The position numbers and the translations under genes were made by a program. Source: a virus (taxonomy: Duplodnaviria; Heunggongvirae; Uroviricota; Caudoviricetes). From it: DNA of 24,259 nucleotides. Positions 1-23,136 of the stretch are shown here, in pieces (the stretch's first letter is position 1; the number at the start of each line of letters is the position of its first letter). Where the stretch lies: the IMG/VR virus record IMGVR_UViG_3300042204_000022; one strand, written 5' to 3'. Under the pieces are notes generated by a model, which was given only the letters and a program-made list of their open reading frames with translations, was not told the origin of the DNA and searched no databases.

Positions 1-127
1 GAGAGCGGCAAATAGAATTGCTTGTCGTTTGCTAAATTTGAAATCAATCTTTTTCATATCATCATTCTAAATTGAAACATAAAAAAAGTCAAGCATAAGC
101 TTGATTTTTCTTTTACACTCTTGCAGA
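1..127 (-). repeat. Exact inverted copy of 4576-4702 (promoter and first codons of the 4646 gene, ending at the TTGCAGA core)
   Basis: Base-by-base reverse complement; position n pairs with 4703-n; identity stops at base 128. Confidence 0.95.
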
Positions 128-139
128 GAGTGCAGTAAG
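116..139 (+). repeat. Recombination site S1: CACTC-TTGCAGA-GAGTGCAGTAAG (symmetric arms)
   Basis: Core 121-127 flanked by the inverted pentamers CACTC/GAGTG. Confidence 0.85.
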
Positions 140-491
140 CTCTTCGAAACTAGACCGCAGCACGTTTCCTGCGTCTCTAAACGACTCTAATTCAGCCTCG
201 TCAGGAAGCGTAAGCCGCTCCGTTACTATACCTGCAAAGGGTCTTGTTATTGCGTTTGGAGTTGTTAGAAAGGGGCCCTCAGGGGCACTGTCTGGGGTCA
301 TCAGTGCGTCAGGAACCGCATTCGTTAGTGGGGTAGGAACGTCATCGGCAAACGACCTTGGGTATGCAACAATTCCAGCAATTAGATTCATCAACGTGCA
401 GCCCGGTACGCTTACTGTATCCATGAACGGAACCGACAACCTCGCCATAGCGTTGACATTTATACCTGTTATTTCATCTACGTTCGCCTAG
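120..491 (+). CDS. Silent variable cassette A (no start codon): LAESAVSSSKLDRSTFPAS...LTFIPVISSTFA*
   Basis: Open frame from S1 to TAG 489-491. It is missing from the ORF track because it has no upstream start. Confidence 0.8.
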   Translation, partial: LAESAVSSSKLDRSTFPASLNDSNSASSGSVSRSVTIPAKGLVIAFGVVRKGPSGALSGVISASGTAFVSGVGTSSANDLGYATIPAIRFINVQPGTLTVSMNGTDNLAIALTFIPVISSTFA

Positions 492-518
492 TGTTGCACC
501 ACCTGCAAGAGCGTTGAA

Positions 519-833
519 CTAATCTACGTAAATAAACGACCCGTCGTCGAGCACTTGGTCGATCTTTTCGTCGCCAATATTCTTTAAGAGGGACTTAAAT
601 GTTTTTTCTACTTCAGTGCTATCGCTATTAGTTGTCCACACGAACATGGCAAACTTTTTATCGTTTTTTTCGTAGTTCTTTCCGTAAGAGTATATTGGTG
701 CTACGCTGCTCGATCTGACCAATATCCCGTTCTTAAGATATGGGTATCCGCCAGAGAAGGTTCTGACATACATTTCGTCTTTTCTTAGTGCGTGGCAAAG
801 ACCAACTTTATCGTGTTCTGCGTATTGTTTCAT
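519..833 (-). CDS. Hypothetical 104-aa passenger protein inside the inversion array
   Basis: ORF with a dedicated promoter directly upstream; no recognisable motif. Confidence 0.7.
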   Translation of the reverse strand: MKQYAEHDKVGLCHALRKDEMYVRTFSGGYPYLKNGILVRSSSVAPIYSYGKNYEKNDKKFAMFVWTTNSDSTEVEKTFKSLLKNIGDEKIDQVLDDGSFIYVD

Positions 834-839
834 ATACTA

Positions 840-868
840 ATTATACCAAAGCATTACCGTTTTGGCAA
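840..868 (-). promoter_or_regulatory. Sigma70 promoter TTGCCA-17-(TGG)TATAAT, 6 nt before ATG 833 (leaderless)
   Basis: -35 at 863-868, -10 at 840-845. Confidence 0.75.
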
Positions 869-873
869 ATCAA

Positions 874-897
874 CACTCTTGCAGATAATGGTGTAAC
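874..897 (+). repeat. Recombination site S2: CACTC-TTGCAGA-TAATGGTGTAAC
   Basis: Core 879-885; 872-897 is identical (26 bp) to 2736-2761. Confidence 0.85.
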
Positions 898-1210
898 AGC
901 CAATAAGATAGATTTTTCTACTATACAAAGTGGGTGGAATTTCGTGGTTGGAAGCGGGACCGCTAATTCAACAAAAACAATAACATTTAGCGACTCGTTT
1001 TCTGCTCCCCCACTGGTATTTATGTCAATGATTGGATATAAAACTGGATCTAACCCAACATCGCCAACCGATATAAACGCACCAGCGTCTTGGACGGTAG
1101 GAACGAACAATGTGACCTCAAACGATTTTCTAGCGTTCTATTCTCAAGCTAGTGGTACGCTCGCAACTAATGTGCGGATACTATTCTACTGGATAGCGAT
1201 TGGGAATTAA
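878..1210 (+). CDS. Silent variable cassette B, gp53-like/H-type-lectin-like tail-fibre C-terminal domain: LADNGVTANKIDFSTIQSGW...FYWIAIGN*
   Basis: In frame from S2. Motifs QSGW, TITFSDSF..PP.V and YWIAIG are typical of tail-fibre C-termini. The track start at 788 overlaps the opposite-strand gene and is unlikely. Confidence 0.8.
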   Translation, partial: LADNGVTANKIDFSTIQSGWNFVVGSGTANSTKTITFSDSFSAPPLVFMSMIGYKTGSNPTSPTDINAPASWTVGTNNVTSNDFLAFYSQASGTLATNVRILFYWIAIGN

Positions 1211-1215
1211 CCCCT

Positions 1216-1662
1216 TTTGCAGAGAGTGCAGTAACAAGATCAAAAATAGGTTCTTCGACATTTCCGAAGGTGCACGCCTACAGAGCTGCTGCTGTTAATT
1301 CAACTAATGGTTCTGGTAGTAAAATAGTATTTGATACAGAGACAATTGACACCCATAACGCTTACAGCACGTCTACTGGAGTTTTTACCGCGCCATACAC
1401 GGGAGACTACTTCATTAGCATCGGTGGTGGCAACACGGCTGCGACAAGTACTGTGATGTATTGGTACATAAAAAGAAACAGCACCACTATCAGACAAGGT
1501 ACTGTCTGGAATCCTTCGAACACTAACAATCGTCAAACATTAACGACCACAGTTTCATTAACTGCGTCAGACACTATTGAGTGTTGGTATGTAGGTGGTG
1601 GAGGTTCGGTTATCGCCGTAGGTCAAGAGAATCTATTTCTTGATATTAACTACTTACCTTAG
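1216..1662 (+). CDS. Silent variable cassette C, C1q/TNF-like domain: FAESAVTRSKIGSSTFPKVHAY...LDINYLP*
   Basis: In frame from S3; FDTETIDTHNAYSTSTGVFTAPYTGDYFI matches the C1q-like F..N...Y...TG.FTAP..G.Y.F pattern. Confidence 0.8.
   Translation, partial: FAESAVTRSKIGSSTFPKVHAYRAAAVNSTNGSGSKIVFDTETIDTHNAYSTSTGVFTAPYTGDYFISIGGGNTAATSTVMYWYIKRNSTTIRQGTVWNPSNTNNRQTLTTTVSLTASDTIECWYVGGGGSVIAVGQENLFLDINYLP
1217..1235 (+). repeat. Recombination site S3: TTGCAGA-GAGTGCAGTAAC
   Basis: Core begins 6 nt after the stop of cassette B. Confidence 0.85.
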
Positions 1663-2103
1663 TTAAATCAACTCAACCATAATAAATGGTTTAGTATTTG
1701 AAGCACTGATTGTTCCTGCATTACAGGCGATTGTTCCTGAACCAGATTGACGATATGCTGTAAGTTTATAGGTGTGTGAACCCGCAGACGGAGCGTCTAC
1801 GATTACCGACCAATATGCGTTATAGCCAAAAACATTAGGGTGAGCTAAGGTGTGAAAACCTAGATAGGTAGAACCTTCTTTGATGAATACACGAGATGTA
1901 TCACCAGAGCTTGTACTTGATAGCCATGTCTGAGCGGTGATACGTATCGAGCGTCCACCTGTCGGAATGCTCACCGTAATGCTTAGACCTGTTAGGTCTA
2001 CCTCTGTTGATGTGATACCGCCTTGGGTCGTCGAGGTTGTTGCGTAGCCTAAAAGTATTGCTCCTGGAGCGACCTTCGTGGCTGTCACTGCACTCTCTGC
2101 AAA
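1663..2103 (-). CDS. Silent variable cassette D: FAESAVTATKVAPGAILLGY...PFIMVELI*
   Basis: In frame from S4; its stop abuts the stop of cassette C; beta-rich, with a GSHTYKL motif. Confidence 0.8.
   Translation of the reverse strand, partial: FAESAVTATKVAPGAILLGYATTSTTQGGITSTEVDLTGLSITVSIPTGGRSIRITAQTWLSSTSSGDTSRVFIKEGSTYLGFHTLAHPNVFGYNAYWSVIVDAPSAGSHTYKLTAYRQSGSGTIACNAGTISASNTKPFIMVELI
2084..2102 (-). repeat. Recombination site S4: TTGCAGA-GAGTGCAGTGAC
   Basis: Core 2096-2102 on the minus strand. Confidence 0.85.
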
Positions 2104-2115
2104 AATGATTGCTTA

Positions 2116-2508
2116 TCAAGTACCAAATGCGACCCAAGTATAGAATAGCGTGTGACCAGCCGTGAAGTTAGCCCCCTGTCTTGTGATAACGACCTGAAAA
2201 CCTGTTGTTGACTCGTTATTCGCCGCAGCCTGCATGTTATCAATATAAGATGTTGACGTTCCTGGATATGCACCAGAACCACTTCCTGTCATTATGCCAC
2301 CCCCCGCTGTTACTAGTACGACGGGGAGACTCGTATACGGAGTCGGAAATGTCACAGACTCTGAAAGATTTGTTGCTGCCGCCCCGGCGATTCTCCCCCA
2401 GCCATACTGAATCTTGACGCTATTGGGGTTGGAGTTGGTGGTATCATATTGTCTCGCTATGAAAGTACCGAAATCGACTTTACTACCCGTTACAGCATTG
2501 TCTGCAAG
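2116..2508 (-). CDS. Silent variable cassette E, gp53-like tail-fibre C-terminal domain: LADNAVTGSKVDFGTF...IQYGWG...VTFPTPY...YTWVAFGT*
   Basis: In frame from S5 to TGA; shares motifs with cassette B. Confidence 0.8.
   Translation of the reverse strand, partial: LADNAVTGSKVDFGTFIARQYDTTNSNPNSVKIQYGWGRIAGAAATNLSESVTFPTPYTSLPVVLVTAGGGIMTGSGSGAYPGTSTSYIDNMQAAANNESTTGFQVVITRQGANFTAGHTLFYTWVAFGT
2489..2507 (-). repeat. Recombination site S5: TTGCAGA-CAATGCTGTAAC
   Basis: Core 2501-2507 on the minus strand; upstream arm is CTTTC. Confidence 0.8.
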
Positions 2509-2521
2509 AAAGTCAACCCCT

Positions 2522-2537
2522 ATTATGGTATAATAAA
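2522..2537 (+). promoter_or_regulatory. Extended -10 promoter ATTATGGTATAATAAA for the constant exon
   Basis: TGnTATAAT with no good -35; the 16-mer is identical to the one upstream of the portal gene (23121-23136, minus). Confidence 0.7.
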
Positions 2538-2603
2538 GTTAATGAATGTCCTCTTTTTGGACTAGAAAATAAAAGAAAAACACCCTCGGAGAATACAAAA
2601 AGC

Positions 2604-3191
2604 ATGGCATTACCAAACCCCGGAATGGACGCAGTACCGTTCACGCCACTTACAGCTGAATTTTTAGACGACATGATCGAGAATATCGAGTCTCTATCAG
2701 ATGGTACAGGGTTCGAAAATGGTGCAATTACCACGAACACTCTTGCAGATAATGGTGTAACGATAGATAAGATCGATAGTTCCGGCTATCCTAGGTTTAT
2801 TGCCAGCAAGAACGTAAGTCAGGGCGGAGCGACCACCGGGACAGTAATAGCATATCCCGCCAAAGAGCTTGACACACATAACGCGTACAGTACCGCTAAC
2901 TCAAGATTCACGGCGCCAATATCGGGTACGTACATGTTCATGGCCGGAGCATTCGCAAACGGTGCGGCCAATACTGGACTCATTATCAATATATCTAAAA
3001 ACGGAGTGGCACAATATCGCGGAGGAGACGGTGCTGGATCGGCATTCGAGAGAGGTTCAAATGTTGTGGCACTTGTTCAACTGTCCGCGGGCGACTATGT
3101 TGATGTTCGCATTCAGTATATAGCCGGAACCAGTAATATAGAGGGGTTCGCATCCCACAAATTCAGTGGGTTTATGGTATTCGGGTCGTAG
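2604..3191 (+). CDS. Expressed receptor-binding/tail-fibre protein: constant N-terminus (2604-2741) fused at S6 to cassette F (C1q-like)
   Basis: The only ORF in the array with an ATG and promoter ahead of a site; C-terminal DTHNAYSTANSRFTAPISGTYMF is a C1q-like motif shared with cassette C. Confidence 0.85.
   Translation: MALPNPGMDAVPFTPLTAEFLDDMIENIESLSDGTGFENGAITTNTLADNGVTIDKIDSSGYPRFIASKNVSQGGATTGTVIAYPAKELDTHNAYSTANSRFTAPISGTYMFMAGAFANGAANTGLIINISKNGVAQYRGGDGAGSAFERGSNVVALVQLSAGDYVDVRIQYIAGTSNIEGFASHKFSGFMVFGS
2738..2761 (+). repeat. Recombination site S6 (expression site): CACTC-TTGCAGA-TAATGGTGTAAC
   Basis: Core 2743-2749 inside codons T-L-A-D. Confidence 0.88.
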
Positions 3192-3194
3192 TCT

Positions 3195-3617
3195 TTTGCA
3201 GAGAGTGCAGTAACACGTTCTAAAATAGATTTTACTACCTTTGTTGGCTACTATACAAACATCAGTACAATCACTACAATTACAGCAGGGAACTTCAGTG
3301 GTACGTCAACTCGTTCAAGTCAATCCGCTACCATCCCAGCCAACTGTACTAGGGCGTTAATCGTTGCTACCGTTCGTCTACAGTCTCAGGGGGCGTCAGC
3401 GAATGACATGTCTTCTAGAATACAAGTAGGAGGAAGTGGAAATAGCACTGGTACTGGTGTTGTTACTGGAGTAGGGACATTTAACGGTAGTATGTCTACT
3501 ATGCTTGGAATACTCACTGTTTCTCCGGGTTCTAACACCTTTGATTTGGTTTGTACTGCTGTGTCAAGCGCCTCAGCTTCAAACTACACTTGTCTTGTTA
3601 TACCGTTACCAAGTTAA
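3195..3617 (+). CDS. Silent variable cassette G: FAESAVTRSKIDFTTFVGYY...CLVIPLPS*
   Basis: In frame from S7; includes the track ORF 3408-3617. Confidence 0.8.
   Translation, partial: FAESAVTRSKIDFTTFVGYYTNISTITTITAGNFSGTSTRSSQSATIPANCTRALIVATVRLQSQGASANDMSSRIQVGGSGNSTGTGVVTGVGTFNGSMSTMLGILTVSPGSNTFDLVCTAVSSASASNYTCLVIPLPS
3196..3214 (+). repeat. Recombination site S7: TTGCAGA-GAGTGCAGTAAC
   Basis: Core begins 4 nt after the stop of cassette F. Confidence 0.85.
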
Positions 3618-4144
3618 TCGTGTCCTAGAACGATAACACTTGAGTTTGCAGCAAAGTTGCCTGTTCCGCCAACGTTTACTATCTCAATACTACTAATCTG
3701 ATTTGATGAGTTCGCCCATTTGACAAGCAATTCGGCACGATCCGGAGCAGAGGCCGCACTAGACGGCGTACCAGTGAAGTTACCAAACCTCTGTACTGTT
3801 ATATTCTTTTCGTTCGTGGCAATATTCACGACATCTAATATTCCTCCCGCGAATGTATACGCAAACGCACCCGCTAAAGATGCTCTGTTTTGGCTAACCG
3901 ATGTACTATCGGCACCACCGTTTGTTGATATACGCACAGCATAGTTGTTGCCACTATCACCGTTGAGTCTAAATGCGTTTTCTACTGTTCCCCCTGTCGC
4001 GTGTATAGAGACATAAATACGTAGATATTTTTTCGGCGTGAATGACAATGCGATGCTTCCGCTGGTAGTGCCCAGAACTGTTCTACCAAGTTCCTCCCAC
4101 CATATTCCAGAGGTCTTACTAAAGGTTACTGCACTCTCTGCAAA
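3614..4144 (-). CDS. Silent variable cassette H: FAESAVTFSKTSGIWWEELGRTVL...VIVLGHD*
   Basis: In frame from S8; its stop shares the palindrome TTAA (3614-3617) with cassette G. Confidence 0.8.
   Translation of the reverse strand, partial: FAESAVTFSKTSGIWWEELGRTVLGTTSGSIALSFTPKKYLRIYVSIHATGGTVENAFRLNGDSGNNYAVRISTNGGADSTSVSQNRASLAGAFAYTFAGGILDVVNIATNEKNITVQRFGNFTGTPSSAASAPDRAELLVKWANSSNQISSIEIVNVGGTGNFAANSSVIVLGHD
4125..4143 (-). repeat. Recombination site S8: TTGCAGA-GAGTGCAGTAAC
   Basis: Core 4137-4143 on the minus strand. Confidence 0.85.
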
Positions 4145-4148
4145 AATG

Positions 4149-4583
4149 TTACAGCGGGATGACCGTTATTCTTCTGTCTAAGAAGTGACCAACACCAGCA
4201 TTGATTTTATATTGCATCTTGAAAGTTGTAGAACCTTGGTTAAGACCAGTCAAAAGAAATGTTGCCCCTATTCTACATCCAGCATTTGTTGTTACATTGT
4301 CTACTAAACGAGTCTGAACAGACAGGTTCTCTGCTGGAGCAATTGTATTCGCGCCACTAGCGACAAACCCTATAAAGTTGTTGGCAGTAGCTGTGTCACT
4401 CATTGTGCTTCCATAGAGGCAGACAAGTGCTAGCCCGTTAAGACCAATTGTCACAGTAACAGATGGACCTGTAGTTGCTAAGTCAACAAAAGAACCGACC
4501 GTAGAGGTGCTTTGCTGTGTGGCTACAAAAGCTGTAGTCGCGCCAGTATTGAGTTTTCTTGGCGTTATAACATTATCTGCAAG
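4149..4583 (-). CDS. Silent variable cassette I: LADNVITPRKLNTGATTAFV...RRITVIPL*
   Basis: In frame from S9; resembles cassette D (VDL.....VTV, GSTTFK). Confidence 0.8.
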   Translation of the reverse strand, partial: LADNVITPRKLNTGATTAFVATQQSTSTVGSFVDLATTGPSVTVTIGLNGLALVCLYGSTMSDTATANNFIGFVASGANTIAPAENLSVQTRLVDNVTTNAGCRIGATFLLTGLNQGSTTFKMQYKINAGVGHFLDRRITVIPL

Positions 4584-4587
4584 AGTG
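4564..4587 (-). repeat. Recombination site S9 (right boundary): CACTC-TTGCAGA-TAATGTTATAAC
   Basis: Core 4576-4582 on the minus strand. Confidence 0.85.
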
Positions 4588-4592
4588 TAAAA

Positions 4593-4622
4593 GAAAAATC
4601 AAGCTTATGCTTGACTTTTTTT
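4593..4622. terminator. Possible bidirectional intrinsic terminator or operator: A-tract TCAAGC-TTAT-GCTTGA T-tract
   Basis: 6-bp stem at 4599-4614 followed by T-runs on both strands; overlaps the -35 of the 4646 promoter. Confidence 0.45.
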
Positions 4623-4639
4623 ATGTTTCAATTTAGAAT
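4611..4639 (+). promoter_or_regulatory. Sigma70 promoter TTGACT-17-TAGAAT, 6 nt before ATG 4646 (leaderless)
   Basis: -35 at 4611-4616, -10 at 4634-4639. Confidence 0.75.
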
Positions 4640-4645
4640 GATGAT

Positions 4646-5185
4646 ATGAAAAAGATTGATTTCAAATTTAGCAAACGACAAGCAATTCTATTTGCCGCTC
4701 TCATAGCTCTCACAGGCTTCGGAGCATGGTCAGCGAACACTTTATCGTCTTCTGGGCCACAAGCGTCTGTAGATAGCTTAAAACACGTCACAGAGCATGT
4801 TTCTGACGTGCCGTCTAGTGTAGAACCAGAAATTGCTGATAATACGGTCGTAAACGTCGCTCCCGCTACGCAAGAAGTCGCACCTGAACCAAAACCCGCT
4901 GAAGCACCAGCACCAACCGTCTATGAAAAGTACGGGGTGAGCGAATCTATCGTTCAGAAATTTGAATCATACTATCCTACCTACGCAAGTCAGAACAAAG
5001 ACTTGTTCGTATCAGATGTCAGTAAGGTTGTATCTGCTGTCGGCGAAGATAATGCTGTGCGTGTTATAGAGACTCATGCGAATAAGACTGGGGTGAACGG
5101 CACTACTACCGCCGAGAAGAACTCATTCATGAGGCTTCATCTCACCTACGGAATCTCTTTTGAGCCTTGGTCTACTGTGTTGTAG
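4646..5185 (+). CDS. Moron-like membrane-anchored or exported protein
   Basis: Basic N-terminus plus hydrophobic segment (AILFAALIALTGFGAW), Pro/Ala-rich linker, own promoter, antisense to the tail operon. Confidence 0.7.
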   Translation: MKKIDFKFSKRQAILFAALIALTGFGAWSANTLSSSGPQASVDSLKHVTEHVSDVPSSVEPEIADNTVVNVAPATQEVAPEPKPAEAPAPTVYEKYGVSESIVQKFESYYPTYASQNKDLFVSDVSKVVSAVGEDNAVRVIETHANKTGVNGTTTAEKNSFMRLHLTYGISFEPWSTVL

Positions 5186-5624
5186 ACGAATAAGGAATAA
5201 TTCTGTAGCTGATCGTAGCGTTGGTCAACGTAGCCCCACTTGCCAAGAACTGGTTCTGGCTCACCGCTGTGATTGTCAGGGTTCTACCAGATAGGCTGGT
5301 GAATATCTCGAAACCAATATTTTCGTTCGTATAGCCAGAGGCGTTCAGTAGAATGCGATACACGCCTCTTCCCGGTGCAGCCCAACGGTTCGTATCAACA
5401 GCCCAGTTCGGGTAAGTGAACGCAGTTGTGTACGGTCCATTAAACATAATGTCGCAGTAGTCTGCGGTAACAGCAAGCGTCACGGTGAAAGTACGAGTAA
5501 TCATACCCGTAGAAGCCATTTCTGGTGCTGAACCGCCTAATACGAAGCTGCCCGTCTGAACGTCGTTGTCGGCTTTGAAGGTGTTAACTGATGTTAATAG
5601 AATAAGTTTAGATAAATCAACCAT
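5172..5624 (-). CDS. Putative tail-tip/baseplate protein
   Basis: Last gene of the translationally coupled tail operon; beta-rich. Confidence 0.6.
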   Translation of the reverse strand: MVDLSKLILLTSVNTFKADNDVQTGSFVLGGSAPEMASTGMITRTFTVTLAVTADYCDIMFNGPYTTAFTYPNWAVDTNRWAAPGRGVYRILLNASGYTNENIGFEIFTSLSGRTLTITAVSQNQFLASGATLTNATISYRIIPYSSTTQ

Positions 5625-5986
5625 TATGAGTCCAAGTAAATTCCATATTTAACGGGTCTTGTCGCTGTGAAGATGCTACCATCGTAGCTAGCACTGGCGA
5701 TCACGAAGAAGCTGGTGCTATCAATAGAGGGACTAATCATAATCACACCATTAGTAACACCTCCTGGTCCACGAACATCGTTGCAGAACTCATTTGCCCA
5801 CCAGATACCGTTGTTTTGATAGTCTGCTGCGACGACAAACTGGGGAATATACCCAAGATTGTGAGTAATTGATGTCTGGTTGGGGTCATAACCCGTAGAA
5901 ACTGCGTTCATCTGACCAAAGAAAGATGATCTTTTTAGATAGTTGTTGCCTGAGTAGAATTGTAGTTTTGTTAAATCAACAGCCAT
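5624..5986 (-). CDS. Putative tail-tip/baseplate protein (start revised to ATG 5986, MAVDLTKLQF)
   Basis: ATG 1 nt after the upstream stop; THNLGYIPQFVV motif is common in phage tail proteins. Confidence 0.6.
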   Translation of the reverse strand: MAVDLTKLQFYSGNNYLKRSSFFGQMNAVSTGYDPNQTSITHNLGYIPQFVVAADYQNNGIWWANEFCNDVRGPGGVTNGVIMISPSIDSTSFFVIASASYDGSIFTATRPVKYGIYLDS

Positions 5987-5987
5987 G

Positions 5988-8187: not shown

Positions 8188-8582
8188 TATGATACAAAGT
8201 AATTATCTGTTGACTGAATTGTCTCTCTTAATACTAATTCTACATTTTCTACTAATCCTGATTCGTCAGTGATGTTCTGCTCGCTCAGTGTTGCTCTCAC
8301 AACAACAGAGGTCACACCCATGTCAGGAATCGTAACTTCAGGGAACTTAAGTGCGGTAAACTGACGGTCGTAGAATCCCTTCAGTGCTGCGTAACCTGCT
8401 GCGTCCATGTAGCCCCATCTAATTGTCCAGACACGCTTTGTCTCGAATAGATCAACGTAGATGTTGAGGTCGAGCGTTGTTACTTCAGAGGTGGCTTCAA
8501 TGACCTGTTCAGTAAGCGGTGTATTCGGTGCTGGTGACACCCATGTAGTTGAATCGTCTTCAAGTGTAATTTCGTATGCCAT
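8187..8582 (-). CDS. Distal tail (Dit)-like protein
   Basis: Directly after the TMP; size and a W.I.W..M...Y..L pattern fit; synteny. Confidence 0.55.
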   Translation of the reverse strand: MAYEITLEDDSTTWVSPAPNTPLTEQVIEATSEVTTLDLNIYVDLFETKRVWTIRWGYMDAAGYAALKGFYDRQFTALKFPEVTIPDMGVTSVVVRATLSEQNITDESGLVENVELVLRETIQSTDNYFVS

Positions 8583-11473
8583 TAGAATGCTCCCTTAAGT
8601 CCCTTTGCACGTAGCTGACTCTGAAGCTGTTTAGCAATCATTTCAGCAAGCTTTGCTTTATCTTGTTCGCTCGTGGCGAGTACACCCGATACGTTAATGT
8701 TGATTTGTGTTGTTGGCTGTTCTTTTGCGTTCGTAACAGGTATAATGTCAGGCGTTGCTTGACCGTTACCACCGTTACCGTTGATTCTTGATGCAAGTCT
8801 GTCAATCCACTCTAGGTTGTTTTCTAGAGGCACAACTGCTTCTGCACCATTTTCACCAATCTCTGCGATTGTTGGCTGGTTTACAACACCACCAGTCGCA
8901 AGACGAGGAATCTTAAGCTCTGTCAAAGTCTTAATGCTAACGCCCGGAATCTTATTGATAAGACCGATAGCACCGTTGATCGCTTTAATGAACATGTTGA
9001 TTGTTCCTTCTGCGAACCCAATGATCGAGTTAACTACCGTCTTGAACGCCTCACCGATAGCGTTACCGATAGAAGAACCAATTTTACCGAAAATACCAGC
9101 GATAGTGTCCCAGATGCCTCTAAAGAAGCTTCCTACCTCTGAGAATGCACATTTGATACTCTCCCATGCACCTGAGAAGATGTCGCCGAACCATTTACCT
9201 ACTACAGAAAATATCTTAACGATTGAATCCCATAGTCCTGTGAAGAAGTTTACGACTGGCTTGATTACGTTGTCGTAAATCCACGTACCAACGACCGAGA
9301 ACACTTTTTTGATGAACTCCCATGCGTTTGCGAATGCTTGCTTTACAAGCTCCCAGTTTTGAACAATCCACAAGATAGCTAGACCGATCGGTCCAGTAAT
9401 GATAGCGAGTAGTAGTGGCCAGTTATTTACAACCCAATCTACAACCCCCTTGATGAAGCCGACGATAGCGTCCCAGACTCCCTTAAAGAAGTTAACGATT
9501 GAGTCCCAGTTTGCGATGATAAGAGCTACCGCACCAATGATAGCTGCGATGATAAGACCCCAGATACCAAGCATAGCTGCGTTTGCGATTACCCAAGCGG
9601 CTGCTGTAGCGACTGCTGCTGCAACCCATGCACCTGCAACGATGACAGCTTGTACAACTGCTCTTGCTGCGGTTACGATGAACTGTGCAACCATAACTGC
9701 TGTCTGCTTCAACCAAGCGGCCGCTGAAGTAACGGCTGCCTTTGTCCATGCTGCTGCTGCGATTGCTGCGTTCTTAACTGCTGAGGCGGCGGTTGTCGCC
9801 ATGTTGACAGCAACATCTTTAACCTTCTTACCAGCGTCAACTGCTGCGTCACGAATCTTTTCGAGACCAGACTTAACGTTGTCCCATGCAACCCTGCCGA
9901 GTTCTTTGGCTTTTTCAACCACATCAGAGATAGCTGTTTTGGTTTGCTCCCATTTAACAGCTACAAAGTCTTTTGCACGTAGCCAAGCGTCTTTTAGATA
10001 TGCACCAAGAAGGTTTGCACCATCTACGGCTGCGTTCCACGCCCATTTAGCTACGGTGCTGATTGCACTTCCCACCTTCTTTGCGAAGTCCCACGCTGTT
10101 GCTAGGTTCTTACCGAAGTTTACAGCCCAGTTAAGCAGTGTTGATAGTGCAGCGAGGGTAGCGATACCTGCGATAATGCCCGCAAGAATCTTAGCCCACT
10201 TAGAGATGTCTTGAACCTTAGTGTCAAGATCACCGAAGATTTTACCTAGTTCACCAGCCTGTGCAGCCGAGAACGGTCCCGCAGTACCGCTTCCCTTGTC
10301 TTTGTCGTCGTCTTTAGGTTCAGTGAGCACGTTCATCTTATCGAATGAAGCGAGTTGGTTACGTAGTTTCTTGGCGGATTTGCTTGCGTCATCTAGGTTA
10401 TTGCCTAGGTCTGAAGCTGATGTAGCACCCGCTGCGAGGCTTTCTGCTGTATCACCAGCAATATCACCCATTGGTTGACCAGTTAGAAGACCGAACAACC
10501 ATCTAAACACGTTGATGAGCTGTACGACCCACTGGAAAAGAACCGTAATAACCTGAGTCAAGAAGCTGAAGAAGTTAACGATGTTCTGACGACCCACAGT
10601 CATGTAGATTTGTGTCAAACCGTTAACTAGGGCGTTCTTCATAGCAGTACCCGCGAACTCGATACCCGTCATCTTTAATGCAACTTGGTCTGAGATTGGC
10701 CCCGCTTCAGTTGAAAGCTTAGTAAGTTCGGTGATGAATTCGTTCATCGAAACCTTACCTTCACTCAATGCGTCCTGTAGGCTTGATGTGCTTACATAAC
10801 CCAACGCCTTCGCCGTTTCGCTAATAGCTAGGGTCATAGCGGTGTTGACTGACTTCCATTCTTCACCTTCGAATCTACCACGAGAGTAAGCCTGGATAAG
10901 CTGTTCTAGGGCACCTGCTTGAGCGTCAGCTGAAGCACCACCCGCAATAAGGGCGTTGTTAACACCTGCGAACACTGCCGTAGAAGCTTTAACATCCTTA
11001 TTAACTGCAACGAAACGAGCCACAGCGTTTGTAGCTAGACCAATGTCACCACCAACACCCTGAACGTACTGACGAAGCTTCACAAGAGCATCTGAAGCGT
11101 CTTTTGAAGAAGCCCCAAGTGCAACCATAGAAGCTGGGAATGTAGCAATCAGGTCAGCTTGCTTAACGGCTGCACCCATAGCGTCAACAATAGACAAAAA
11201 GGCCTTATTAACTAAGGCCGATTGAACGGTTGTCTTCGCAATGTGAACAAAGTAGTTACTCTGAGCCTTAGCAGCTCGATTAGTAGCGTTTGCGTTCTCA
11301 TTGGTTGTGTTGTTCAAGTCCTTGATAGACTTGCTGGCACCTTGGGCGTTAGTCCCCGTACCACTTACAGCAGTTGCTGCCTGCTTTGCAGCATCACCGA
11401 CAAGCTTAAAGGCAGCTGCGCCCTCTTTAGCGCCTTCTACTAGAATGTAATATTTTAGGTTGCTGTCTTGCAT
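8582..11473 (-). CDS. Tail tape measure protein
   Basis: 963 aa, Ala-rich; N-terminal ALEQLIQAYSRGRFEGEEW tape-measure motif; Trp-periodic repeats; C-terminal PRLATGG...GENGAEAVVPL. Confidence 0.92.
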   Translation of the reverse strand: MQDSNLKYYILVEGAKEGAAAFKLVGDAAKQAATAVSGTGTNAQGASKSIKDLNNTTNENANATNRAAKAQSNYFVHIAKTTVQSALVNKAFLSIVDAMGAAVKQADLIATFPASMVALGASSKDASDALVKLRQYVQGVGGDIGLATNAVARFVAVNKDVKASTAVFAGVNNALIAGGASADAQAGALEQLIQAYSRGRFEGEEWKSVNTAMTLAISETAKALGYVSTSSLQDALSEGKVSMNEFITELTKLSTEAGPISDQVALKMTGIEFAGTAMKNALVNGLTQIYMTVGRQNIVNFFSFLTQVITVLFQWVVQLINVFRWLFGLLTGQPMGDIAGDTAESLAAGATSASDLGNNLDDASKSAKKLRNQLASFDKMNVLTEPKDDDKDKGSGTAGPFSAAQAGELGKIFGDLDTKVQDISKWAKILAGIIAGIATLAALSTLLNWAVNFGKNLATAWDFAKKVGSAISTVAKWAWNAAVDGANLLGAYLKDAWLRAKDFVAVKWEQTKTAISDVVEKAKELGRVAWDNVKSGLEKIRDAAVDAGKKVKDVAVNMATTAASAVKNAAIAAAAWTKAAVTSAAAWLKQTAVMVAQFIVTAARAVVQAVIVAGAWVAAAVATAAAWVIANAAMLGIWGLIIAAIIGAVALIIANWDSIVNFFKGVWDAIVGFIKGVVDWVVNNWPLLLAIITGPIGLAILWIVQNWELVKQAFANAWEFIKKVFSVVGTWIYDNVIKPVVNFFTGLWDSIVKIFSVVGKWFGDIFSGAWESIKCAFSEVGSFFRGIWDTIAGIFGKIGSSIGNAIGEAFKTVVNSIIGFAEGTINMFIKAINGAIGLINKIPGVSIKTLTELKIPRLATGGVVNQPTIAEIGENGAEAVVPLENNLEWIDRLASRINGNGGNGQATPDIIPVTNAKEQPTTQININVSGVLATSEQDKAKLAEMIAKQLQSQLRAKGLKGAF

Positions 11474-23120: not shown

Positions 23121-23136
23121 TTTATTATACCATAAT
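23121..23136 (-). promoter_or_regulatory. Extended -10 promoter ATTATGGTATAATAAA for the portal gene
   Basis: Identical 16-mer to 2522-2537. Confidence 0.7.

Follow-up and report, generated by a model that had tools for sequence, protein, structure and literature searches.

This locus raises two questions: what does an array of open cassettes, each opened by the same short site and lying in either orientation, encode, and do the two classes of arm in those sites decide which inversions occur? The array occupies positions 116-4587 of a 24,259-nucleotide stretch of DNA from an uncultured phage of the Caudoviricetes (IMG/VR record IMGVR_UViG_3300042204_000022), and we refer to this whole stretch as the window. 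An earlier reading of the letters alone, here called the sequence-only reading, had proposed that the pairing of arm classes may restrict which inversions occur and protect single cassettes from excision. We conclude that 116-4587 is probably a multiple-inversion shufflon that varies a small receptor-binding protein of the phage, with a tyrosine recombinase as its likely enzyme and a two-layer grammar of arm classes.

A cassette array around a constant N-terminal part

The constant N-terminal part of the receptor-binding protein is encoded by 46 codons at 2604..2741 (+) that end in the left arm of a site, S6, and it is preceded by an extended -10 promoter element, TGGTATAAT, at 2526..2534 (+). 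The array can be read directly as B> C> <D <E, the promoter and constant part, and then F> G> <H <I. Cassette A and a gene encoding a 104-amino acid (aa) protein are located outside both of these blocks. In the frame set by the site, read from one base before its core, all nine cassettes are open for 110-176 codons. The cassettes with right arms of the class that we call DN are B (878..1210, +, 110 codons, H-type lectin), E (2116..2508, -, 130 codons, weak H-type lectin match), F (2742..3191, +, 149 codons, C1q domain), and I (4149..4583, -, 144 codons). Those of the other class, ES, are A (120..491, +, 123 codons), C (1216..1662, +, 148 codons, C1q-like), D (1663..2103, -, 146 codons), G (3195..3617, +, 140 codons), and H (3614..4144, -, 176 codons). 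Judging by reading frame, cassette F is currently expressed; it alone reaches a start codon, through the constant part, giving a product of 195 aa with a C1q domain. The five ES cassettes are intact and have no usable start codon. Elsewhere, the window carries a module of phage structural genes, among them those for the portal, the tape-measure protein and tail proteins. From the cassettes, the constant part, the C1q and H-lectin heads and these structural surroundings, the locus is predicted to be a shufflon for a small phage receptor-binding protein.

In the mechanism we propose, a constant 46-codon N-terminus with its own promoter, ending in the left half of a site, would be joined by inversion to one of nine C-terminal heads (C1q-like, H-type-lectin, and other folds), each of which starts with the right half of a site. 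The site itself consists of a loose 5-bp left arm (CAYTY), the core TTGCAGA, and a coding 12-bp right arm of the ES or DN family. Strand exchange would take place inside the 7-bp core, a 275-aa recombinase described below would carry out the inversions, and rates may differ between site pairs.

Relatives were found by searching with the constant part. One of them, a 5.9-kb IMG/VR contig (L001), has a constant part that is 95% identical and only one block, which reads constant part, DN> ES> <ES <DN, followed by the same right flank. In a second relative (L002) and a complete 99-kb phage (L004) the fibre gene is fixed and sites are absent. The 46-codon constant part is common to 22 close homologues with differing C-termini; in these it ends in TNTLA, TSTLA or NALA, and 21 of them begin at its start while one is N-terminally extended. 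Direct fusions to window cassettes are found among such proteins, with P0047 consisting of the constant part and cassette G (93% identity over 140 aa) and P0039 of the constant part and cassette E (92% identity). A metagenome scan returned a further locus (L033) in which the constant part ends in ACCACGAACACTC and is followed by TTGCAGA and an ES arm, and one (L034) that was an unrelated chance match. The exact 21-mer ES site had no match in IMG/VR. The exact 16-mer matched 29 loci there, with two matches in L001 only, and the single matches are probably due to chance. Neither the fibre protein nor the portal had a relative among GenBank phages, where we found only distant integrases.

We considered whether the second block might be an assembly chimera of two strains. 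This is unlikely given that the junctions at S2 and S5 are unique and that cassettes of the two blocks are <33% identical between blocks. Across the whole set the cassettes are <35% identical to one another, with weak paralogues at mirrored positions (B and E, 1e-12; G and H, 5e-4).

Architecture of the recombination sites

The window contains 13 copies of the heptamer TTGCAGA, where 4.2 are expected, and nine of these are at 121-4582. The fuller pattern YTY-TTGCAGR-NARTG-NN-RTRA[CG], which adds to the core three bases on its left and the 12-bp right arm, has exactly nine matches in the window, all at 116-4587 (five on the plus strand and four on the minus strand), and the remaining four heptamers are without arms. 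Over the nine full sites the core is invariant and the left arms have only CAYTY in common. The right arm, NARTGNNRTRAC, is 12 bp long, with sequence identity between sites stopping at +12/+13.

Comparison of the nine sites bears out the two classes of right arm described in the sequence-only reading, along with its cassette lists, its list of left arms and its array order. The ES right arm, GAGTGCAGT, is found at S1 (116..139, +; CACTC / TTGCAGA / GAGTGCAGTAAG), S3 (1212..1235, +; CCCTT / TTGCAGA / GAGTGCAGTAAC), S4 (2084..2107, -; CATTT / TTGCAGA / GAGTGCAGTGAC), S7 (3191..3214, +; GTCTT / TTGCAGA / GAGTGCAGTAAC), and S8 (4125..4148, -; CATTT / TTGCAGA / GAGTGCAGTAAC), corresponding to cassettes A, C, D, G, and H. 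The DN right arm begins TAATG or CAATG (YAATG) and is found at S2 (874..897, +; CACTC / TTGCAGA / TAATGGTGTAAC), S5 (2489..2512, -; CTTTC / TTGCAGA / CAATGCTGTAAC), S6 (2738..2761, +; CACTC / TTGCAGA / TAATGGTGTAAC), and S9 (4564..4587, -; CACTC / TTGCAGA / TAATGTTATAAC), corresponding to B, E, F, and I. S6 is the expression junction in the assembled isomer and S9 is the right boundary of the array. There is also a degenerate tenth site at 495..517 (-) (AACGCTC / TTGCAGG / TGGTGCAAC), which is followed by only 11 open codons. Together with the left arm of S2 it forms a 15-bp inverted repeat that flanks the 104-aa gene.

The T-rich left arms had been taken for non-arms. They are instead degenerate arms: in a set of seven non-coding left arms (S3, S4, S5, S7, S8 and two from L001), 27 of 35 positions match CAYTY where about 12 are expected (P < 1e-5), and 0 of 200,000 resamplings reached this score. 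Both right-arm classes start with the reverse complement of CAYTY, and the CATTT of S4 and S8 mirrors the DN arm. The right arms also appear to be constrained. GAGTGCAGT is found in all eight ES arms seen and is identical at synonymous positions despite the high divergence of the cassettes. Since the proteins encoded by the cassettes are so dissimilar, this identity suggests that the DNA itself is under constraint.

The class of the site does not track the fold of the cassette. C (ES) and F (DN) are both C1q-like while B and E, both DN, are both H-lectin, and one cassette body is found with either arm class. A 19-mer at 5769-5787 (+), outside the array, matches the last bases of the constant part and the core (CCACGAACA..TTGCAGA) at 16 of 19 positions. 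We rejected the TTGCAGA at 5781 as a site; it has no right arm, lies antisense within a small tail gene, and is probably a chance occurrence (about 0.005 expected per window).

Arm classes and the isomers they allow

We then asked what the arm classes imply for recombination. The most direct evidence comes from a second copy of the right flank. Bases 1..127 (-) are identical at 127 of 127 positions to the reverse complement of 4576-4702, and the match goes no further than the last base of the core. Within one assembly, the right flank adjoins cassette I (DN) at S9 and cassette A (ES) at S1. Because the identity ends at the core, S1 consists of the left arm of the right flank and the right arm of cassette A. 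S1, which had been regarded as the only symmetric site of the array, is a cross-class product of DN and ES sites and not a native symmetric site. The duplicated 127 bases are best read as the trace of a second isomer in the assembly graph, a pattern expected when two isomers coexist.

Three observations refute the strict form of the pairing proposal, in which exchange takes place only between arms of one class. The right flank joined to cassette A at S1 is impossible with within-class exchange. Under such a rule the ES cassettes, which have no start codon, would never be expressed. Lastly, in public assemblies the constant part is followed by ES in 12 of the 22 homologues and by DN, DG or DK in 10, so that for the left arm of the constant part the arm combinations are similarly frequent; the sequence-only reading had itself named similar frequencies as a finding that would count against it.

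To describe what the arms do allow, we treated the array as segments, that is, stretches between cores, scored each segment end as left arm (L) or right arm (R), and carried out a breadth-first search over all inversions. Read directly, the array is x, RL (A and the 104-aa gene), RL (B), RR (C, D), LR (E), LL (promoter and constant part), RL (F), RR (G, H), LR (I), and the right flank. With free pairing there are 107,520 isomers and every cassette can reach the constant part. With within-class pairing the number of isomers falls to 1,536, only B, E, F, and I can be joined to the constant part, and no isomer brings the right flank to A or to any other ES cassette. Of the isomers reached by free pairing, 7.1% keep the grammar, defined as all four T-rich left arms facing ES arms.

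This grammar has two layers. The first is independent of the arrangement. All six ends of convergent-pair (RR) segments carry ES arms (C/D, G/H, and 2/3 of L001), and six of the seven single-cassette segments have a DN arm and a T-rich left arm after the stop (B, E, F, I, and 1 and 4 of L001). Three fixed boundaries, namely the constant part, the right flank and the region upstream of the 104-aa gene, carry ACACTC, and two of these are non-coding. One RR segment is required in any array that has a left arm at each boundary, and two are required if there is an LL segment in the middle, so the repeated block is partly forced by topology. The second layer depends on the arrangement. Each T-rich left arm faces an ES arm in the assembled isomer, for which the chance probability is 0.07 in the window and 1/3 in L001. 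We regard this arm-facing pattern as suggestive but weak. Since cross-class exchange occurs and is needed to express the ES cassettes, the grammar is not a prohibition; it is mostly the build of the segments together with the arrangement that was assembled, and not a rule that forbids swaps.

A weaker form of the pairing proposal holds that within-class pairs, which are identical over 19-21 bp, recombine much faster than cross-class pairs, which are identical over 7 bp, and a companion idea is that the layout slows the loss of single cassettes and keeps the array near a ground state. The nearest direct neighbours do differ in class (S2/S3, S6/S7, S5/S4, S9/S8) and the nearest inverted neighbours share it (S3/S4, S7/S8, S5/S6). 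Such alternation could reduce cassette loss if within-class exchange were the faster. Both the window and L001 are in an arrangement that within-class exchange preserves, the contig is unbroken through eight sites, which suggests one dominant isomer, and in R64 site variants and left arms alter inversion rates (PMC11852207). Against this, the combined probability (about 0.02) is weak evidence and was calculated only once the pattern had been noticed, fusions of the constant part to ES are as common as those to DN among relatives, and the sole branch seen in the assembly is a cross-class junction. A slow or damaged recombinase, or host selection, would account for a dominant isomer equally well. 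We consider both the rate difference and its proposed effect on the array unlikely.

A more elaborate version would turn the alternating arm classes into an inbuilt switch with two speeds. Within-class inversions, being fast, would keep exchanging the four DN heads at the expression site, and rare cross-class events would admit the five ES heads, making at the same time one doubly strong CACTC/GAGTG site and one doubly weak site. The nearest direct sites would be poor partners, so that single cassettes would be spared excision by an enzyme that lacks the extra domain of Rci, the R64 recombinase. We offer this as speculation and think it somewhat less likely than the simple difference in rate.

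At the other extreme, the array might be frozen or nearly so, with its classes and order reflecting only the duplication or transfer of a DN-ES-ES-DN module and having no present role in recombination. That L001 has exactly one module and a truncated recombinase fits this idea, as do the damaged recombinase genes of other relatives and the weak paralogy of mirrored cassettes. The identity of ES arms at synonymous positions, the conservation of non-coding left arms and the two junctions of the right flank in one assembly all argue for constraint and exchange instead, and close relatives express G and E, which are silent in the window. We judge a purely ancestral origin improbable. An active shufflon in which cross-class exchange takes place is the reading we favour.

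The candidate recombinase, neighbouring genes and related systems

A shufflon requires an enzyme, and the sequence-only reading had linked the sites to tyrosine recombinases. Within the window, Pfam searches of 27 open reading frames of at least 90 aa (the non-cassette frames, of 37 listed) revealed no recombinase, and the best match in tblastn searches of the window with tyrosine recombinases had E = 1.8. The relative L001 provided a candidate, which agrees with the proposed link. At 3568-3769 (-), L001 contains the final 61 codons of a tyrosine recombinase gene (PF00589, 48 bits). They lie upstream of the constant part at a distance of about 500 bp, and the promoter of the 104-aa gene is about 50 bp away from them. 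This fragment belongs to a family of 275-aa proteins with invariant R138, K161, H222-x-x-R225, H248, and Y257 that end 18 residues past the catalytic Tyr and have their best matches, below curated cut-offs, to XerA and XerD. One member (P0001) shares 71 of 73 index words with a stretch located 62,952 bases past the end of the window in the same genome. The fibre protein of the window is recorded on an 88,259-bp contig, which places this P0001-like stretch at the far right end of that contig. Scans of IMG/VR and GTDB with the recombinase returned L001 only, plus distant integrases with <50% identity, and the complete 99-kb relative that lacks a shufflon has no PF00589 match. From this adjacency and co-occurrence, the 275-aa XerA/XerD-like tyrosine recombinase is the likely enzyme of the array.

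Classical inversion of phage tail fibres uses serine invertases (PMC6109161; bioRxiv 10.1101/2025.07.22.666180), raising the alternative that a serine invertase of the Gin/Cin/Min type, or else general homologous recombination, acts on these sites. No serine recombinase or resolvase domain was found by Pfam in the 27 open reading frames scanned, a 7-bp core with a one-sided 12-bp arm fits tyrosine enzymes, and the fragment beside the array in L001 is that of a tyrosine recombinase. Repeats of 19-21 bp are also very short for RecA-type exchange. Either alternative is very improbable, and a tyrosine recombinase remains the enzyme we favour.

Several points weigh against the reading of the locus as a shufflon served by this enzyme. 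The recombinase gene is outside the window and its position on the same contig is known only through the sequence-index match. The protein could be an integrase and not an invertase. The L001 copy is truncated, and two further members, P0004 and P0006, are damaged (truncated or internally deleted). The evidence for inversion in the source population is one assembly branch point. The window and L001 are independent assemblies and both are grammatical, which allows for a real within-class bias. The body of cassette 4 of L001 (5430-5757, -) has a right arm of the DN class in that contig but comes with one of the ES class in P0059 (90% identity), and such re-assortment of arms and bodies is not explained by exchange inside the core. 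In P0039 the body of cassette E likewise carries an F-type arm. It seems that, in the course of evolution, bodies have traded arms, with the point of exchange 3' of the 12-bp arm.

In L001 the recombinase gene breaks off precisely at a left arm of the shufflon type, ACACTCTTG, and the break falls at codons that encode I-L-A-G-Y in the intact protein. The cut may have arisen by deletion between direct sites or pseudo-sites, with a junction that is not clean. Recombinase loss may be common in this lineage and would leave shufflons locked. The lysis genes are contiguous with the shufflon in L001.

The 104-aa gene (519..833, -) is located inside the invertible array and has its own TGGTATAAT promoter at 840-848. 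This gene neighbours the fibre gene in every relative examined (L001 3804-4116; L002 8142-8459; L004 about 8348-8680, -), with its position and orientation differing among upstream, downstream and convergent. The protein has no match in Pfam, PHROG or NCBIfam and may be a chaperone or partner of the fibre. TGGTATAAT occurs three times in the window, at 840-848 (-), 2526-2534 (+) and 23124-23132 (-), and two of these copies are predicted promoters that would drive the fibre gene and the 104-aa gene. The element is conserved before the fibre gene in L001 and, with one base altered (TGGTATAAtT), in L004.

The right flank (4588..4702, +) contains a terminator-like hairpin at 4599-4614, followed by a promoter and the start of an open reading frame at 4646-5185. 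The hairpin is palindromic, has T-runs on both sides, is located directly outside S9 and is repeated at 89-104 (-) in the second copy of the flank. It resembles a two-way terminator, and its T-run is the outer part of the left arm of the right flank. Just upstream of the fibre locus, both the window (5172-5624, -, and about 5624-5987, -) and L002 (6446-7472) have a run of small paralogous tail proteins that start with M-x-V-D-x-[ST]-K-L and have no family match.

To our knowledge, tyrosine-recombinase phage shufflons are known from few cases only. The system described here is one of them, nearest in kind to Rin and to a shufflon of BV01-like phages, and nearest to R64 in the logic of its sites. 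The sfx sites of R64 have a 12-bp left arm, a 7-bp core and a 12-bp right arm (PMC11852207). The resemblance to sfx sites that the sequence-only reading had pointed out extends to the invariant 7-bp core, the coding 12-bp right arm conserved in sequence variants and the variable, poorly conserved left arm. As in R64, many sites in both orientations lie between C-terminal cassettes of one adhesin-like protein, and in R64 a tyrosine recombinase performs the exchange (PMC11852207). Unlike R64, which is a plasmid with cassettes for the PilV pilus tip, this is a phage with cassettes for a receptor-binding protein, the promoter and constant part are inside the array, and there are nine cassettes. 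The asymmetry of sfx is held to limit Rci to inversions, with artificial symmetric sites giving excisions too (PMC11852207). By description, however, the 275-aa enzyme has no room for the extra C-terminal domain of Rci (PMC11852207), so the R64 explanation of how deletions are avoided is not simply transferable.

Rin, from Bifidobacterium prophages (Mavrich et al. 2018, PMC6109161), is likewise a phage receptor-binding-protein shufflon with a constant N-terminus, variable C-termini and a short asymmetric repeat before each variable part. It is served by an XerD-like tyrosine recombinase without an arm-binding domain, which resembles ours by description, and the same puzzle of directionality has been raised for it (PMC6109161). 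The rix repeat of Rin is 11 bp long (TTCCCTAACCC) and unrelated in sequence to the TTGCAGA sites, and the Rin array has the recombinase and the constant gene on its flanks. Rin is found in prophages, whereas the present array is in an uncultured phage of about 88 kb whose shufflon-less relative of about 99 kb has no tyrosine-recombinase match. The BV01-like Phocaeicola phage also has a multi-cassette shufflon at the distal end of its tail fibre with a flanking recombinase, and all configurations were detected in reads (PMC13596623). It differs in having three cassettes, six isoforms and a 10-bp motif, TGGGAGAACT, and the portion of that report available to us does not mention two arm classes. 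In the Min (p15B), Gin (Mu) and Cin (P1) systems, inversion also yields alternative tail-fibre C-termini, and Min has multiple sites; these use serine invertases and another site architecture, and no such enzyme was found among the window reading frames scanned.

The value of the narrower finding on arm pairing is negative and clarifying, in that the apparent grammar arises largely from segment topology and a single assembled isomer. More broadly, the locus offers this phage nine receptor-binding heads in about 10^5 possible arrangements, with a promoter within the invertible DNA. The combination of sfx geometry with a compact enzyme that lacks the Rci-specific domain would make deletion avoidance by armless tyrosine invertases directly testable, and the enzyme and site are a candidate pair for synthetic shuffling systems.

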